Position numbers and translations under genes: made by a program. The notes under the pieces are model-generated. The model did no database searches, had not been told where the DNA came from, and saw nothing but the letters and a program-made list of their open reading frames with translations. A DNA stretch of 6,535 nucleotides from a virus (taxonomy: Duplodnaviria; Heunggongvirae; Uroviricota; Caudoviricetes). Each line of letters starts with the position of its first letter. Within the stretch, counting starts at the first letter, position 1. The DNA lies in the IMG/VR virus record IMGVR_UViG_2657245634_000021, positions 1 through 6,535 of that record; one strand, 5' to 3'. Positions 1-6,535 of the stretch are shown here, piece after piece.

Positions 1-1101
1 ATGAAATTTACCGTAGAACGTGAGCATTTATTAAAACCGCTACAACAGGTGAGCGGTCCGTTAGGTGGTCGTCCTACGCTACCGATTCTCGGTAATCTGC
101 TGTTACAGGTTGCTGACGGTACGTTGTCGCTGACCGGTACTGATCTCGAGATGGAAATGGTGGCACGTGTTGCGCTGGTTCAGCCACACGAGCCAGGAGC
201 GACGACCGTTCCGGCGCGCAAATTCTTTGATATCTGCCGTGGTCTGCCTGAAGGCGCGGAAATTGCCGTGCAGCTGGAAGGTGAACGGATGCTGGTACGC
301 TCCGGGCGTAGCCGTTTTTCGCTGTCTACCCTGCCAGCGGCGGATTTCCCGAACCTCGATGACTGGCAGAGTGAAGTCGAATTTACCCTGCCGCAGGCAA
401 CGATGAAGCGTCTGATTGAAGCGACCCAGTTTTCTATGGCGCATCAGGACGTTCGCTATTACTTAAATGGTATGCTGTTTGAAACCGAAGGTGAAGAACT
501 GCGCACCGTGGCAACCGACGGCCACCGTCTGGCGGTCTGTTCAATGCCAATTGGTCAATCTTTGCCAAGCCATTCGGTGATCGTACCGCGTAAAGGCGTG
601 ATTGAACTGATGCGTATGCTCGACGGCGGCGACAATCCGCTGCGCGTACAGATTGGCAGCAACAACATTCGCGCCCACGTTGGCGACTTTATCTTCACCT
701 CCAAACTGGTGGATGGTCGCTTCCCGGATTATCGCCGCGTTCTGCCGAAGAACCCGGACAAACATCTGGAAGCTGGCTGCGATCTGCTCAAGCAGGCGTT
801 TGCTCGCGCGGCGATTCTCTCTAACGAGAAATTCCGCGGCGTACGTCTTTATGTCAGCGAAAACCAGCTGAAAATCACCGCCAACAACCCGGAACAGGAA
901 GAAGCGGAAGAGATCCTCGACGTTACCTATAGCGGTGCGGAGATGGAAATCGGCTTCAACGTCAGCTATGTGCTGGATGTTCTGAACGCGCTGAAATGCG
1001 AAAACGTCCGCATGATGCTGACCGATTCGGTTTCCAGCGTGCAGATTGAAGATGCCGCATCACAGTCGGCTGCCTATGTTGTCATGCCAATGAGACTGTA
1101 A
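1..1101 (+). CDS. dnaN: DNA polymerase III beta sliding clamp (DnaN), full length 366 aa
   Basis: Intact ORF from ATG at 1 to TAA at 1099-1101. The translation ([37 protein letters not shown]...VVMPMRL) matches my recollection of E. coli DnaN over its whole length. Its stop overlaps the next start as TAATG, as in the native dnaN-recF arrangement. Confidence 0.96.
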
Positions 1102-1601
1102 TGTCCCTCACCCGCTTGTTGATCCGCGATTTCCGCAACATTGAAACCGCGGATCTCGCTTTATCTCCCGGCTTTAACTTTCTGGTAGGTGCCAACGGCA
1201 GTGGCAAAACCAGCGTGCTGGAAGCCATCTATACGCTCGGCCATGGTCGGGCGTTTCGCAGTTTGCAGATTGGTCGCGTCATTCGCCATGAGCAGGAGGC
1301 ATTTGTTCTCCATGGGCGATTACAGGGCGAAGAGCGCGAGACGGCGATTGGCTTAACCAAGGACAAACAGGGCGACAGCAAAGTCCGCATCGACGGTACT
1401 GACGGGCATAAAGTCGCGGAACTGGCGCACCTGATGCCAATGCAGCTGATAACGCCAGAAGGGTTTACTTTACTCAACGGCGGCCCCAAATACAGAAGAG
1501 CATTCCTCGACTGGGGATGCTTTCACAACGAACCCGGATTTTTCACCGCCTGGAGCAATCTCAAGCGATTGCTCAAGCAGCGCAATGCGGCGCTGCGCCA
1601 G
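1101..1601 (+). pseudogene. recF: recF 5-prime fragment (about the first 167 codons), fused in frame to phage-derived sequence
   Basis: ATG at 1101 overlapping the dnaN stop. N-terminus [38 protein letters not shown] carries the RecF Walker A motif (GANGSGKT). RecF-like sequence is recognisable up to ...[14 protein letters not shown] (ending near 1601); after that the protein no longer resembles RecF, and the distal two-thirds of RecF (about 357 aa in E. coli, from memory) is absent. The hybrid ORF continues to a TGA at 1899-1901. Confidence 0.85.
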
Positions 1602-1901
1602 ACAAATGCGGAGCTGTACGAGTACCGCGAACAGAAAATTGCCGCCGGTTTTACGTGTCTGGCGGACGTCCCGGCGGACGATATCGACGGTGAAAGCATC
1701 AAAGTTTTTTACTACGAGCGCGCCGTGTGTGCGATGGCGACCGCGTCGCTTTATGAGCGTTATCGCGGCGTGGATGCCAGTGCGAAAGGTGACAAGAAGG
1801 CTGACAGCATTGACAGCACCATTGATGAGCTGTGGCGGGATATGCGCTGGGCGGTGGCGCGTATCCAGGACAAACCGCGCTGCATCGTGAGTCAAATCTG
1901 A
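1602..1901 (+). pseudogene. 3-prime fragment of the P2-type phage late gene upstream of X (probably head completion protein gpL), 5-prime end missing
   Basis: Same reading frame as the recF fragment. Translation [99 protein letters not shown] is unrelated to RecF. Its stop overlaps the start of X (TGATG at 1899-1903). Assignment to L is by position in the P2 late gene order (L-X-Y-K-lysA-lysB-R) and is not verified by search. Confidence 0.55.
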
Positions 1902-2104
1902 TGAAGACCTTTGCGCTACAGGGCGACACGCTCGACGCCATTTGTGTCCGGTATTACGGGCGCACTGAGGGCGTGGTCGAAGCCGTGCTCGCCGCAAATC
2001 CGGGACTGGCTGAACTGGGTGCAGTGCTGCCGCACGGCACCGCCGTCGAACTGCCCGACGTTCAGACCGCGCCCGTGGCTGAAACTGTCAATCTGTGGGA
2101 GTAA
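1901..2104 (+). CDS. X: P2-type phage tail protein X (gpX), 67 aa
   Basis: ATG at 1901 overlapping the upstream stop. Translation MKTFALQGDTLDAICVRYYGRTEGVVEAVLAANPGLAELGAVLPHGTAVELPDVQTAPVAETVNLWE matches recalled P2 gpX. The ORF-track start at 1832 is rejected as an upstream extension. Confidence 0.85.
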   Translation: MKTFALQGDTLDAICVRYYGRTEGVVEAVLAANPGLAELGAVLPHGTAVELPDVQTAPVAETVNLWE

Positions 2105-2107
2105 CGC

Positions 2108-2389
2108 ATGACAGCAGAAGAAAAAAGCGTCCTGTCGCTTTTTATGATTGGGGTGCTGATTGTTGTCGGCAAGGTGCTTGCCGGTGGTGAACCCATCACC
2201 CCGCGTCTGTTTATCGGGCGCATGTTGCTCGGTGGTTTTGTCTCGATGGTTGCCGGTGTTGTTCTGGTGCAGTTTCCTGACCTGTCACTGCCTGCGGTGT
2301 GCGGCATCGGCTCCATGCTGGGTATCGCCGGTTATCAGGTGATTGAGATTGCCATTCAGCGCCGCTTTAAGGGCAGGGGGAAACCGTAA
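2108..2389 (+). CDS. Y: P2-type holin (gpY), 93 aa
   Basis: ATG at 2108 with a GGGAG Shine-Dalgarno 6 nt upstream. The product is hydrophobic with membrane-spanning stretches (LSLFMIGVLIVVGKVLAGG..., GGFVSMVAGVVLVQF..., GIGSMLGIAGYQVI) and a basic C-terminus (RRFKGRGKP), typical of holins. Position and size fit P2 Y. Confidence 0.85.
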   Translation: MTAEEKSVLSLFMIGVLIVVGKVLAGGEPITPRLFIGRMLLGGFVSMVAGVVLVQFPDLSLPAVCGIGSMLGIAGYQVIEIAIQRRFKGRGKP

Positions 2390-2886
2390 TGCCGGTAATT
2401 AACACGCATCAGAATATCGCCGCCTTTCTCGACATGCTGGCGGTGTCCGAAGGGACGGCAAATCATCCGCTGACGAAAAACCGGGGCTATGACGTGATAG
2501 TCACCGGACTGGACGGGAAGCCGGAAATTTTCACCGACTACAGTGACCACCCGTTCGCGCATGGCCGACCGGCGAAGGTGTTTAACCGTCGCGGTGAAAA
2601 GTCCACGGCCTCCGGTCGCTATCAGCAGCTTTACCTGTTCTGGCCGCACTACCGCAAACAGCTTGCCCTGCCGGATTTCAGTCCGTTGTCACAGGACAGA
2701 CTCGCCATTCAGTTGATCCGCGAACGCGGTGCACTGGATGACATCCGGGCGGGACGCATTGAGCGCGCCATTTCACGCTGTCGCAATATCTGGGCGTCCC
2801 TGCCGGGTGCCGGTTACGGTCAGCGTGAGCATTCACTGGAAAAACTGGTCACCGTCTGGCGTACCGCTGGCGGCGTACCGGCTTAA
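2389..2886 (+). CDS. K: P2-type endolysin (gpK), 165 aa
   Basis: ATG at 2389 overlapping the Y stop (TAATG). Translation MPVINTHQNIAAFLDMLAVSEGTANHPLTKNRGYDVIVTG... matches recalled P2 gpK lysozyme. The holin-endolysin order is canonical. Confidence 0.9.
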   Translation: MPVINTHQNIAAFLDMLAVSEGTANHPLTKNRGYDVIVTGLDGKPEIFTDYSDHPFAHGRPAKVFNRRGEKSTASGRYQQLYLFWPHYRKQLALPDFSPLSQDRLAIQLIRERGALDDIRAGRIERAISRCRNIWASLPGAGYGQREHSLEKLVTVWRTAGGVPA

Positions 2887-2900
2887 ACGGAGTAAACACC

Positions 2901-3326
2901 ATGAAGAAATTATCCCTTTCACTGATGCTGAACGTGTCGCTGGTGATGATGCTGGCACTGTCCCTGATTTACCCGCAGAGCGTGGCCGTCAGTTTTGTCG
3001 CCGCCTGGGCGATTCTGGCGACGGTTATCTGTGTGGTTGCCGGTGGTGTCGGCGTGTATGCCACCGAGTATGTACTTGAACGCTACGGGCGGGAGCTGCC
3101 GCCGGAATCGCTGGCCGTGAAGATTGTCACGTCGCTGTTTTTGCAGCCGGTGCCGTGGCGCAGACGGGCGGCGGCTCTGGTGGTGATGGTGGCGACGTTT
3201 ATCTCGCTGGTCGCTGCCGGGTGGATTTTTACTGCGCTGATTTACCTCGTGGCGTCGGTGTTCTTCCGGCTGATACGTACGGCCTGTCGTCAGCGTTTTG
3301 AGGGGCGGGAACCATGTCAAAGCTGA
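2901..3326 (+). CDS. lysA: P2-type lysis accessory membrane protein LysA, 141 aa
   Basis: ATG at 2901 with GGAG upstream. The product is strongly hydrophobic with several predicted transmembrane segments. Position immediately after K matches P2 lysA. Confidence 0.8.
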   Translation: MKKLSLSLMLNVSLVMMLALSLIYPQSVAVSFVAAWAILATVICVVAGGVGVYATEYVLERYGRELPPESLAVKIVTSLFLQPVPWRRRAAALVVMVATFISLVAAGWIFTALIYLVASVFFRLIRTACRQRFEGREPCQS

Positions 3327-3784
3327 TGATTGTGCTGGTCGTGTTGTTATCGCTGGCGGTGGCCGGTCTGTTTCTGGCGAAGCATGAAAACGCCAGCCTG
3401 CGCACCTCGCTGGACAGGGCGAACAACGTCGCCAGCGGGCAGCAGACGACCATCACCATGCTGAAAAATCAGCTTCATGTTGCCCTCACCAGAGCAGACA
3501 AAAACGAGCTGGCGCAGGTGGCACTGCGTCAGGAACTGGAGAACGCGGCGAAGCGTGAAGCACAGCGCGAGAAAACCATCACGAGGTTACTGAATGAAAA
3601 CGAAGATTTTCGCCGCTGGTACGGCGCTGACCTGCCTGATGCTGTGCGCCGGTTGCACCAGCGCCCCGCCTGCACCGACGCCAGTGATTGTCCCCAACGC
3701 CTGCCCGAAAGTGAGTCTTTGCCCGATGCCGGGCAGCGCCCCGGAGACGAACGGCGATTTAAGTGCCGATATCCGGCAGCTTGA
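3314..3784 (+). CDS. lysB: P2-type LysB, Rz-like inner-membrane spanin, 156 aa as read
   Basis: ATG at 3314 overlaps the lysA 3-prime end by 13 nt. N-terminal transmembrane segment (MSKLMIVLVVLLSLAVAGLFLA) followed by a charged, probably helical periplasmic region, typical of i-spanins. Position matches P2 lysB. Confidence 0.8.
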   Translation: MSKLMIVLVVLLSLAVAGLFLAKHENASLRTSLDRANNVASGQQTTITMLKNQLHVALTRADKNELAQVALRQELENAAKREAQREKTITRLLNENEDFRRWYGADLPDAVRRLHQRPACTDASDCPQRLPESESLPDAGQRPGDERRFKCRYPAA

Positions 3785-3884
3785 GAACGCGCTGGCGCGC
3801 TGTGCCAGCCAGGTAAAAATGATTAAACACTGTCAGGACGAAAACGATGCTCAAACCCGACAGCCTGCGCAGGGCGCTGACTGA
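3594..3884 (+). CDS. lysC: P2-type LysC, Rz1-like outer-membrane lipoprotein spanin, 96 aa
   Basis: ATG at 3594 with GAGG 7 nt upstream, in an alternative frame inside lysB, extending past the lysB stop and into the start of R. Signal peptide with a lipobox-like Cys (MKTKIFAAGTALTCLMLCAGC) followed by a Pro-rich segment (TSAPPAPTPVIVPNACP), hallmarks of o-spanins. Confidence 0.75.
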   Translation: MKTKIFAAGTALTCLMLCAGCTSAPPAPTPVIVPNACPKVSLCPMPGSAPETNGDLSADIRQLENALARCASQVKMIKHCQDENDAQTRQPAQGAD

Positions 3885-4149
3885 TGCCGTCACGGTGCTG
3901 AAAACCAGTCCCGAGATGCTGCGGATATTCGTGGATAACGGGAGTATTGCCTCCACACTGGCGGCGTCGCTGTCATTTGAAAAGCGTTACACGCTCAATG
4001 TCATTGTGACCGACTTTACCGGTGATTTTGACCTGCTCATCGTGCCGGTGCTGGCGTGGCTGCGGGAAAATCAGCCCGACATCATGACCACCGACGAAGG
4101 CCAGAAAAAGGGCTTCACGTTTTATGCAGACATCAACAATGACAGCAGC
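3847..4149 (+). pseudogene. R: P2-type tail completion protein gpR, 5-prime fragment (about 100 codons), 3-prime end replaced
   Basis: ATG at 3847. Translation MLKPDSLRRALTDAVTVLKTSPEMLRIFVDNGSIASTLAASLSFEKRYTLNVIVTDFTGDFDLLIVPVLAWLRENQPDIMTTDEGQKKGFTFYADINNDSS matches recalled P2 gpR. The remaining 24 codons of the ORF (to 4224) are low-complexity and are the antisense of a well-formed ParA-like coding sequence, so I place the breakpoint near 4147-4160. The endpoint is approximate. Confidence 0.7.
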
Positions 4150-4361
4150 TTTGATATCAGCATATCAAATTTCTCAACAAGGGTTATTGCTGGTAACAGT
4201 CCTGCAGCTTCTCGTTCCGCATGATGTTTTGCGGCTGTTCGTTGTAGATCTCCGTTTAACAGGCAGACTTCCCTTCCTTTATTTGCTAGAGCAATAGCCA
4301 GGTTTGATGCAATGGTAGTTTTCCCTGAACCACCTTTGTTCCCACCAACTACAGTAATCAT
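4150..4361 (-). pseudogene. ParA-like (type Ib, deviant Walker A) partition ATPase, N-terminal fragment of about 70 codons
   Basis: Minus-strand ATG at 4359-4361 with GAGG 5-8 nt upstream. Translation MITVVGGNKGGSGKTTIASNLAIALANKGREVCLLNGDLQRTAA... has the deviant Walker A KGGSGKTT (4314-4346) and the downstream D-x-Q region typical of ParA/MinD/Soj ATPases. The ORF ends after 79 aa where it runs into antisense P2 R sequence; intact ParA proteins are about 200 aa or more. Confidence 0.7.
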
Positions 4362-4589
4362 TGCAACCTCATAAATATGATGTGTGAAGTATGATGATAT
4401 TTTGACACGGTAACCTGAGGTGTCAATATGTGTTCATATTTATGAAGTATGAAATATGAAGTGTGTCATGTGATGTAATAAATAATACTTGTGTTTTGTG
4501 ATTTCATAACTATGATAGTGCTCAAATTGAGTATTACATTGCAACCAGAAACAATGATTTACTCAGATTGAGTATTTAAGGGGCTATAG
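4362..4589. promoter_or_regulatory. AT-rich divergent intergenic region with iteron-like repeats; candidate parC-type centromere and promoter/operator
   Basis: Four copies of the octamer TATGA(A/T)G(T/A) at 4376, 4390, 4441 and 4455, as two pairs with 14-bp spacing. The pairs flank a 7-bp inverted repeat TTGACAC (4402-4408) / GTGTCAA (4420-4426) that presents TTGACA, a perfect -35 hexamer, on both strands. A TATGAT -10-like hexamer sits at 4511-4516 and an AAGGGG Shine-Dalgarno at 4577-4582 before the parM ATG. Function is inferred by analogy with R1 parC, where ParR-bound iterons flank the promoter. Confidence 0.5.
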
Positions 4590-5561
4590 ATGAACGTATA
4601 CTGCGATGATGGTTCAACAACAATCAAGTTGGCATGGAATGATAATGGGGAAATCTGTAAGTCGTTGTCGCAAAACTCATTTCGTCATGGATGGAAGGTT
4701 GACGGGTTAGGAATTCGCCAGACATTTAACTATGAACTGGATGGTAAAAAATACACGTATGATGAAGTTAGCAACCAATCTATTCTTACGACTCATATTG
4801 AGTATCAATATACGGATGTTAACCTGTTAGCTGTGCATCACGCTTTACTGAATAGTGGATTAGCGCCTCAGCCTGTATCATTGACTGTGACTTTGCCTAT
4901 CAGTGAGTTCTATACGAAAGAGTGTCAAAAAAATGAACTCAACATTCAGCGTAAAATTGAGAATTTAATGGGGCCGATTCGTCTTAATAAAGGCGATGTT
5001 TTCACCATTGAACACGTTGATGTGATGCCTGAATCATTGCCAGCTGTGTTTTCTCGTCTGGTCGTGGATAAAGTTGGTCAGTTCGAAAAATCGCTGGTAG
5101 TTGATATTGGCGGCACTACGCTTGATGTTGGTGTTATCGTTGGTCAATTTGACTCTGTAAGTGCCATTCATGGTAATTCTGGCATTGGTGTATCTTCAGT
5201 TACGAAAGCTGCAATGAGTGCATTGCGCATGGCATCCAGTGATACCAGTTTCCTCGTTGCAGATGAATTGATTAAACGTCGTAATGACCCGGACTTTGTT
5301 CGGCAGGTTATAAATGACGAAACAAAAACTGATCTGGTCCTTAATACCATTGAGGGGGCTATTGCCAGTTTGGGGGAGCAAGTAGTCAATGAGCTCGGTG
5401 ATTTCCATCATGTGAATCGTGTTTATGTTGTCGGTGGTGGGGCCCCGTTGATCTATGATTCGATAAAAACGGCATGGCACCATCTTGGGCAAAAAGTAGT
5501 GATGATGGAGTCGCCACAGACAGCACTGGTTGAAGCTATCGCGGCTTTCAAAGAGGAGTAA
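4590..5561 (+). CDS. parM: ParM/StbA-family actin-like plasmid segregation ATPase, 323 aa
   Basis: ATG at 4590 with an AAGGGG Shine-Dalgarno. Actin-fold phosphate-binding motifs DDGSTTIKL near the N-terminus and VVDIGGTTLDV mid-protein. Collinear similarity to recalled plasmid R1 ParM (for example FNY, YQYTDVN..AVHHALL, FTI..V.VMPES.PA, GVS.VT, VVGGGA). Confidence 0.9.
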   Translation: MNVYCDDGSTTIKLAWNDNGEICKSLSQNSFRHGWKVDGLGIRQTFNYELDGKKYTYDEVSNQSILTTHIEYQYTDVNLLAVHHALLNSGLAPQPVSLTVTLPISEFYTKECQKNELNIQRKIENLMGPIRLNKGDVFTIEHVDVMPESLPAVFSRLVVDKVGQFEKSLVVDIGGTTLDVGVIVGQFDSVSAIHGNSGIGVSSVTKAAMSALRMASSDTSFLVADELIKRRNDPDFVRQVINDETKTDLVLNTIEGAIASLGEQVVNELGDFHHVNRVYVVGGGAPLIYDSIKTAWHHLGQKVVMMESPQTALVEAIAAFKEE

Positions 5562-5565
5562 TATT

Positions 5566-5958
5566 GTGGACGATGAACGGAAAAGGAAAAAATACACACT
5601 TTATCTGCATCCGGAAAAAGCTGCAGACTTTCAAACTTTGGAAGCGATAGAGTCCGTTCCGCGTTCTGAGCGTGGTGAGCTGTTCCGGAATGCATTTATT
5701 TCTGGAATGGCGTTACACCAACTTGATCCTCGCCTGCCTGTATTGCTGACTGCCATTTTGAGCGAGGAGTTTTCAGCAGATCAGGTTGTAACCTTACTCA
5801 GTCAGACGACTGGATGGAAGCCTTCTCAGGCCGATATCAGAGCTGTGTTGACTGAACTCGGTGCTTCGCAATTTGCTGAAAAAATGCCTCCTTCTGCTAC
5901 TGATTCGGTGCAGGAGGCAATGAATGATGTGCGTCTTAAAATGAAAAAATTATTCTGA
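5566..5958 (+). CDS. parR: ParR/StbB-like centromere-binding adaptor protein, about 130 aa
   Basis: Proposed GTG start at 5566, 7 nt after a strong AAGAGGAG Shine-Dalgarno formed by the last parM codons; stop TGA at 5956-5958. The segment ESVPRSERGELFRNAFISGMALHQLDPRLPVLL resembles R1 ParR (SIPQGERSRLNRAALTAGLALYRQDPRTPFLL, from memory). The ORF-track ATG at 5530 lies inside parM with no Shine-Dalgarno and is rejected. Confidence 0.75.
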   Translation: MDDERKRKKYTLYLHPEKAADFQTLEAIESVPRSERGELFRNAFISGMALHQLDPRLPVLLTAILSEEFSADQVVTLLSQTTGWKPSQADIRAVLTELGASQFAEKMPPSATDSVQEAMNDVRLKMKKLF

Positions 5959-5969
5959 TATATCAGAAT
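5944..5969 (-). terminator. Possible weak intrinsic terminator for the minus-strand umuC-like gene
   Basis: Perfect 18-bp palindrome ATTCTGATATATCAGAAT (5952-5969) about 20 nt past the umuC-like stop (5990-5992), followed on the minus strand by a U-tract (complement of AAAAAA at 5945-5950). The stem is AU-rich and has no real loop, so terminator strength is doubtful. It overlaps the parR stop codon. Confidence 0.3.
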
Positions 5970-5989
5970 GAAGCAATGGGGATCTCAGT

Positions 5990-6535
5990 CTATTGTGTTG
6001 TATACGAAGGCGATAGCATTTCCTGTTTCATTTGCCATTCAGGGGCGGTTCCTCGCCCCGCAAACCACACTTTCCCTTTTCCCGACTGGTTCAGTTCATC
6101 GAGTGTTTTCATTAACTTTTCACTGTTTTTACGGGGCTGGATTTCATCAAATAATCCCGGCTGCGCTATACCCGATGGTGTGAAATCAGCCAGCATGACT
6201 CCTGCCTTCATATAGCGGTACCCTTCACGCCAGACATGGTTTAAGGCTCTGCATGCGGCGGCAATAATGTCCCGGCTGTCCTGTGTGGGCAATGAAAGCT
6301 TTTCCACAGCGGCATTGCTGTAACAGGGTTCTTTTACTGCAAAGGGGGATGTCCGTACAAATGTCGTCACCTGCCGGCAATACTGACGCTCCCCACGTAG
6401 TTTCTCTGCGGCCCGCTCAGCATACTGAACAACAGCCTGGTGCATGGCATCTTTGTCTGTGATTCGTTCACCAAAACTGCGACTACAGACAATCTGCTGT
6501 TTTGCCGGTGGTGCTTCTTCCAGGGATATGCAGGA
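5990..6535 (-). CDS. umuC: UmuC/MucB/ImpB-family Y-family DNA polymerase (Pol V catalytic subunit), C-terminal about 180 codons; 5-prime end beyond the window
   Basis: Minus-strand frame is open from the window edge (6535) to the TAG at 5990-5992; I translated 6446-6535 by hand (SCISLEEAPPAKQQIVCSRSFGERITDKDA) and it continues into the ORF-track protein. The sequence RSFGERITDKDAMHQAVVQYAERAAEKLRGERQYCRQVTTFVRTSPF...VWFAGRGTAPEWQMKQEMLSPSYTTQ is collinear with the recalled UmuC C-terminus (RAAEKLR, TSPF, FAGQG..QWQMK..MLSP.YTT). Confidence 0.85.
   Translation of the reverse strand, partial: SCISLEEAPPAKQQIVCSRSFGERITDKDAMHQAVVQYAERAAEKLRGERQYCRQVTTFVRTSPFAVKEPCYSNAAVEKLSLPTQDSRDIIAAACRALNHVWREGYRYMKAGVMLADFTPSGIAQPGLFDEIQPRKNSEKLMKTLDELNQSGKGKVWFAGRGTAPEWQMKQEMLSPSYTTQ

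Follow-up and report, generated by a model that had tools for sequence, protein, structure and literature searches.

A P2-type R gene running into a plasmid parA-like gene in Escherichia coli: very probably a misjoin within a chimeric contig of a draft genome

How does a P2-type tail-completion gene come to run tail to tail, and without any spacer, into a plasmid partition gene? We analysed a 6,535-nt stretch of DNA (the window) whose open reading frame (ORF) listing places a GpR-like ORF of 125 aa at 3847–4224 on the plus strand against an ORF of 79 aa, similar to a ParA N-terminus, at 4122–4361 on the minus strand, the two converging frames overlapping by 103 nt. An earlier note had proposed that both genes lose their 3′ ends at one point, near 4149. 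Exact mapping of both parents bore out the single point and the absence of a spacer, and moved the point by 14 nt: exact extension from internal anchors positioned this junction (junction B) at 4163|4164, where the exact match to the phage parent ends with 4163 and that to the plasmid parent begins with the same base. One T (4163) is common to both parents and there is no filler. At the break, the phage parent reads ...GATATCAGCAT|CAGCCTGATG, the plasmid parent ...GTGTCAGGT|TATCAAATTT and the window ...GATATCAGCAT|ATCAAATTT.

What do the two ORFs encode? The authentic 5′ part of the P2 tail-completion gene R occupies 3847–4163 (plus strand; codons 1–105 and two bases of codon 106), and from the junction to 4224 the frame reads through into antisense plasmid parA-like DNA. 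The translation equals parental R over 107 of its 155 residues; the DNA break falls within codon 106, and the last S of the matching stretch is the same in parent and chimera by coincidence. R is phage-like, as had been noted, but through ...NNDSSFDISIS rather than up to ...NNDSS, so that NFSTRVIAGNSPAASRSA is all that read-through contributes. On the minus strand, the authentic 5′ part of a gene for a plasmid ParA/MinD-type P-loop ATPase spans 4164–4361 (codons 1–66 of 214) and its product is identical to WP_000633911.1 of plasmid pDEC15A-1 over 66 of 214 residues. This ORF then runs on to 4122 as antisense-R read-through; the earlier note had recognized the origin of this tail and counted nine residues, whereas the final 13 (MLISKLLSLLMSA) belong to it. 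Its residue assignments for the two ORFs were off by 4–6 residues.

To judge whether either ORF belongs to its family, we took as a GpR member a protein of about 155 aa that matches the full length of the Pfam profile PF06891 (133 positions). The intact parent covers positions 1–133 and the window ORF positions 1–107, which makes the latter a fragment of a member and not a functional member. For ParA/MinD proteins, we looked for a deviant Walker A motif (KGGxGK[ST]) together with the remainder of the ATPase fold (Walker A′ and Walker B) in a protein of about 200–260 aa. The intact parent has 214 aa. The window ORF keeps GGNKGGSGKTT, with KGGSGKT as the deviant Walker A, among its 66 authentic residues; its Pfam matches (CbiA, AAA_31, MipZ and ParA) are limited to the N-terminal P-loop, up to about profile position 54, and it does not qualify as a ParA/MinD ATPase. 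Both ORFs start as genuine N-terminal parts of P2 protein R and of a plasmid ParA/MinD-type ATPase but, unlike natural proteins of either kind, they break off within a domain and finish as antisense read-through. As the earlier note had suspected, the homologues show that neither protein naturally ends at the join, the full-length parents having 155 aa (R) and 214 aa (ParA-like). Neither ORF is a natural short variant of R or of the ParA-like ATPase, and both fused ORFs at junction B very probably encode nothing real.

Where, then, do the pieces of the window come from? Positions 1–1601 (plus strand) are chromosomal and comprise dnaN (1–1101) and the 5′ part of recF (1101–1601, RecF residues 1–167 of 357); in complete E. 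coli genomes, they find an exact match at dnaN-recF that stops at 1601. A whole-window search matched two separate places on the chromosome of E. coli O111:H21 strain 15A, the prophage described next and a second place that is presumably dnaN-recF. Positions 1600–4163 (plus strand) are a piece of a P2-like prophage, carrying the 3′ part of gpL, X, holin, endolysin, LysA, LysB, LysC and the 5′ part of R. This piece is 100% identical to positions 2923960–2926523 of the strain 15A chromosome (NZ_CP077477.1; 0 mismatches in 2,564 nt), where the prophage sits at 2.92 Mb, and the runner-up genome reaches 98.8% identity. Finally, positions 4163–6535 (plus strand) derive from pDEC15A-1 (NZ_CP077478.1; 1 mismatch in 2,373 nt, a substitution at 4538) and are cut by the contig end. 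The plasmid piece holds the parA-like 5′ part (4164–4361, minus strand), a repeat-rich intergenic region (4362–4589), parM (4590–5561), a plasmid stability gene of the ParR/StbB-like type (5566–5958) and the 3′ part of umuC (5990–6535, minus strand), severed by the contig end.

In the finished genome of strain 15A, R is intact (155 aa) and followed by S and the baseplate genes, and the gene for WP_000633911.1 (214 aa) is complete and lies between a small hypothetical gene and parM. The intact R and the intact ParA-like gene reside on different replicons, the chromosome and plasmid pDEC15A-1, respectively. Judged by these identities, the sequenced isolate belongs to the lineage of E. coli O111:H21 strain 15A, an enteroaggregative strain with an AAF/III plasmid. 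Among the listed proteins, those nearest to parental R are 3–5 residues away from it.

Several features of these loci were seen in passing. The strain 15A chromosome record starts inside a second P2-like region (NZ_CP077477.1, 1–9000) with tail sheath, tube and tape measure genes and an ogr-like gene; its tail tube gene is frameshifted, and the region is separate from the source of the window's prophage piece. The prophage lysB ORF (3314–3884) encodes 156 aa, compared with 141 aa in the P2-like phage P2_4B2, overlaps the ORF of the 96-aa LysC lipoprotein (3594–3884) and is marked in the RefSeq annotation of strain 15A as an incomplete pseudogene. In the plasmid piece, the AT-rich stretch at 4362–4589, between the divergent parA-like and parM genes, contains iterated direct repeats of the ATGAAGT/ATGATG type and several inverted repeats, and probably serves as parC-like centromere and promoter for the ParMR system. 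The substitution at 4538 falls within a 10-nt direct repeat, CATTGCAACC (4359–4368/4537–4546), and is common to both draft contigs.

Does the join occur elsewhere? We queried complete E. coli genomes, phages and plasmids with window positions 3800–4600 by megablast. Thousands of matches all halted at the boundary, those to phages and prophages ending at 4160–4167 and those to plasmids beginning at 4150; no record in these three sets covered at least 80% of the query. Junction B was spanned by 0 of 5,426 complete E. coli genomes and was likewise unspanned in 72,556 plasmids, 50,697 phages, the GTDB species representatives and the JGI metagenome contigs. In the scanned collections, the sole occurrence of the 42-nt junction sequence beyond the two draft contigs described next was the IMG/VR record IMGVR_UViG_2690316066_000017, itself the reverse complement of one of them, CDRY01000017.1. 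The staggered match ends gave the appearance of a 14–18 nt microhomology at junction B, which we rejected as BLAST over-extension (4 mismatches and 1 gap); a single nucleotide is truly shared.

Searching for exact copies of the protein encoded by the chimeric R ORF gave two contigs from draft assemblies, CCBW01000004.1 (GCA_000939035.1; 27,240 nt) and CDRY01000017.1 (GCA_001373235.1; 5,996 nt). A literature search with the accession prefixes and assembly identifiers of the two assemblies found nothing. The window corresponds to the last 6,535 nt, less 2, of CCBW01000004.1, and junction B is one of several joins in this contig. Within its last 15.4 kb, loci that are not linked meet seamlessly three times, at dgcN|mnmE, recF|gpL and R|parA, which makes it a serial mosaic with at least three joins; the pieces measure 7,138 and 2,564 nt and, for the third, at least 2,373 nt. 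The dgcN (yfiN)|mnmE join lies about 5.5 kb upstream of the window (3363/3364 of the 15.4-kb end stretch), where a rimM-trmD-rplS-yfiB-dgcN block abuts a 3′-truncated mnmE with a shortened MnmE product; none of the complete E. coli genomes spans it.

The recF|gpL join (junction A, 1600..1601) has a 2-nt overlap (AG) and no filler. It fuses RecF(1–167) to gpL(71–169), in frame by chance, in an ORF of 266 aa (1101–1901). Junction A is present only in CCBW01000004.1, as CDRY01000017.1 reads straight through that prophage position. RecF entries of about 167 aa in the protein cluster of the fusion, considered as a sign of a natural hot spot in recF, proved to be frameshifted or contig-edge fragments with unrelated tails, and the partial gpL members of this cluster that begin at the breakpoint probably reflect cluster-coverage rules.

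The second contig, CDRY01000017.1, has junction B, the substitution at 4538 and the last umuC base exactly as in CCBW01000004.1, and disagrees with it to the left. There, the prophage extends 490–500 nt further, past the site of junction A, to a left end made of 558 nt of agg3C, 100% identical to pDEC15A-1. What connects agg3C to phage gpM is the string NNNTNNGNNN (559–568). Under this string, agg3C continues as gtaTcaGaaa and the phage is preceded by cggTgcGctg; the two parents agree at just two positions, and these are the T and the G that were called. This marks NNNTNNGNNN as a consensus drawn from two sets of reads that are unrelated, placed over a false join, as a caller yields when reads from two true loci are piled over a gap or join that no read crosses. 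The two contigs thus give the same prophage piece mutually incompatible left neighbours, and one of the joins is without sequence support.

What produced junction B? Chimeric contigs are a well-known class in draft bacterial assemblies. On sequence comparison, we consider it very probable that junction B is a false join in such a contig rather than a product of recombination that the bacterium carries, because the pieces are separate and intact in a finished genome of the same lineage and because the join is one among several. Of three marks of a chimeric contig, comparison of the assembled sequences shows two, mapping at about 100% to separate, intact loci of one genome and joins that are multiple and conflicting; for the third, missing read support across the join, the mixed consensus NNNTNNGNNN at the other join of the sister contig is indirect evidence. 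As in misassembled draft contigs, (i) unlinked loci are joined seamlessly, several times per contig; (ii) the joins conflict between assemblies; (iii) the consensus contains ambiguous bases at one join; and (iv) every parental locus is intact in a finished genome.

Sequence comparison establishes directly which loci are the parents, that they are separate, where the breakpoints fall, that the mosaic is serial, that the neighbours conflict and that the N string is a mixed consensus; the step that gave rise to the chimera we infer. The isolate would carry an intact chromosomal P2-like prophage and an intact plasmid parA-like/parM/parR/umuDC region, and pieces of chromosome, prophage and plasmid of 2.5–7 kb would have been concatenated during library preparation and/or assembly. 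One candidate is blunt ligation, or chimeric library molecules multiplied by PCR, creating forks that were then taken by the assembler or scaffolder; alternatively, scaffolding or gap closing may have introduced the misjoins.

Three observations weigh against a chimeric contig, the third of which, on repeats at the joins, is given further below. First, unlike in usual misassembly, the same false join, together with the same contig end, is found in two assemblies with accessions of their own; unless reads or library were shared, this is unusual. Such recurrence implies that the assemblies have reads or a library in common, that a chimeric molecule was present in many copies, or that a rearrangement is real in the population or a subpopulation. 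Second, an assembler that takes three chimeric paths in a row must have found the chimeric links well supported.

The foremost alternative, which we regard as unlikely, is that illegitimate, homology-independent end-joining took place in vivo in the isolate or a subpopulation, linking a copy of the lysis-R region to a copy of parA-parM-umuC, the product perhaps belonging to a more extensive mosaic of duplicated fragments. Seamless joins with 1–2 nt of overlap are known from alternative end-joining in E. coli. The joins described here resemble such products, and microhomology-poor illegitimate recombination in E. coli more generally, in their 0–2 nt overlaps, lack of filler and random intragenic positions. 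A product of this kind would also account for the identity of junction B in two accessioned assemblies with a common contig end and SNP, and the prophage ends in CDRY01000017.1 attach to plasmid positions 7.2 kb apart in consistent orientation. Against end-joining, the finished, near-identical strain 15A has every piece intact at a locus of its own, and more than 5,400 complete genomes and 72,000 plasmids are all free of the join; a genuine rearrangement finds no support in either comparison. Moreover, the assemblies disagree on the left side of the prophage piece, one such join being the mixed-consensus N string, and three unlinked joins within 15 kb would be highly exceptional in a wild isolate. 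Contrary to what alternative end-joining leads one to expect, the parental loci are intact in the reference, the density of joins is far above the in vivo expectation and one join is demonstrably a consensus artefact. That the isolate or an abundant subpopulation truly carries a mosaic of extra mnmE-recF, gpL-R and parA-umuC copies, linked by homology-independent end-joining, seems more doubtful still; shattering and rejoining of this type is an event not documented in wild E. coli.

Do the sequences around the breakpoints point to any other mechanism? The join itself creates an 8-nt inverted repeat, TTTGATAT-CAGC-ATATCAAA (4150–4169), with arms at 4150–4157 and 4162–4169, which encloses a GATATC site (4153–4158). 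Repeat and site are present as the earlier note had described, and the break does lie within the repeat, though inside its right arm (4163|4164) and not at about 4149. The left arm, the loop and 2 nt are phage-derived and the remaining 6 nt plasmid-derived. A straddling palindrome with at least 6 cross-junction pairs arose in about 2–4% of simulated random juxtapositions (2.3–3.6% of trials matched or surpassed the observed one), and the palindrome at junction B is compatible with chance. We therefore rejected it as a signature of fold-back or template switching, given this frequency and a negative result at junction B in a uniform 12-mer test for direct and inverted similarity, run on all four junctions.

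The uniform test gave one nominal match, an 11/12 direct repeat at junction A (p about 0.001 uncorrected, about 0.01 after eight tests), for which no mechanism accounts. The repeat, AATGCGGCGCTG on the recF side and AATGCGGAGCTG on the gpL side (1584–1616), brackets junction A with both copies kept. Together, the palindrome at junction B and the repeat at junction A hint at some possible part for sequence similarity in the joining, the third observation that weighs against a chimeric contig. In intact parental R, two perfectly complementary 10-nt arms separated by a single base form an inverted repeat, TCAGCATCAG-C-CTGATGCTGA (4155–4175 region). The break of junction B lies in its left arm, and a repeat of this form could stall polymerases.

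The flanks show no recombination signature. No sequence of at least 9 nt, no restriction site and no IS end is common to the ten breakpoint flanks, and neither parental locus has a mobile-element gene adjoining the breakpoint. Checked for mobile-element genes and shared sequences, junction B, with 1 nt shared, shows no sign of an IS, a transposon or a site-specific recombinase; the overlaps of 1–2 nt exclude both site-specific and homologous recombination.

The GATATC site at the join had been taken as a possible hint of cloning with EcoRV, and it does sit within the palindrome. The whole site is nevertheless native to phage R, in the parent (TTGATATCAGCATC) as in P2-like phages, so that the two parents do not contribute a half-site each. 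EcoRV would cut at 4155|4156, 8 nt to the left of the end of phage identity at 4163, and the plasmid parent is without GATATC at the breakpoint (GTGTCAGGT|TATCAAA); there is no vector sequence, and the other breakpoints lack a common site. A restriction-ligation junction is, on these grounds, extremely improbable. Equally improbable is a natural phage-plasmid hybrid or satellite linking P2 late genes to a plasmid partition module, which the proximity of P2 lysis and tail genes to parM/parR and the ParA-like gene and the listing of the sister contig as a viral genome fragment in IMG/VR might suggest, since each gene at the boundary is broken off within a domain and non-functional, the partition module matches pDEC15A-1 at 100%, as the phage piece does the resident prophage, and no other phage, plasmid, viral or metagenome record has this combination. 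Both the cloning and the hybrid explanation are contradicted by the features tested.

The false join has already entered databases. RefSeq lists the 79-aa read-through ORF as WP_283236559.1 (UniRef100_UPI0024B57E5D), labelled 'ParA family protein'; the sister contig CDRY01000017.1 is catalogued, as its reverse complement, as the viral genome fragment IMGVR_UViG_2690316066_000017; and fusion ORFs such as RecF::gpL are present in protein clusters. The core reading of the earlier note, two genes truncated at one point, was right, and the conclusion that the contig is most likely an artefactual mosaic goes beyond it, though its call for a look at the reads across the join pointed that way, so that its interpretation as a whole is partly supported. 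Junction B reveals no new gene, element or recombination mechanism, and its value is one of data hygiene. Scans for phage-plasmid hybrids, gene fusions and novel junctions will keep meeting contigs of this kind, and GCA_000939035.1 and GCA_001373235.1 are best treated as holding chimeric contigs.
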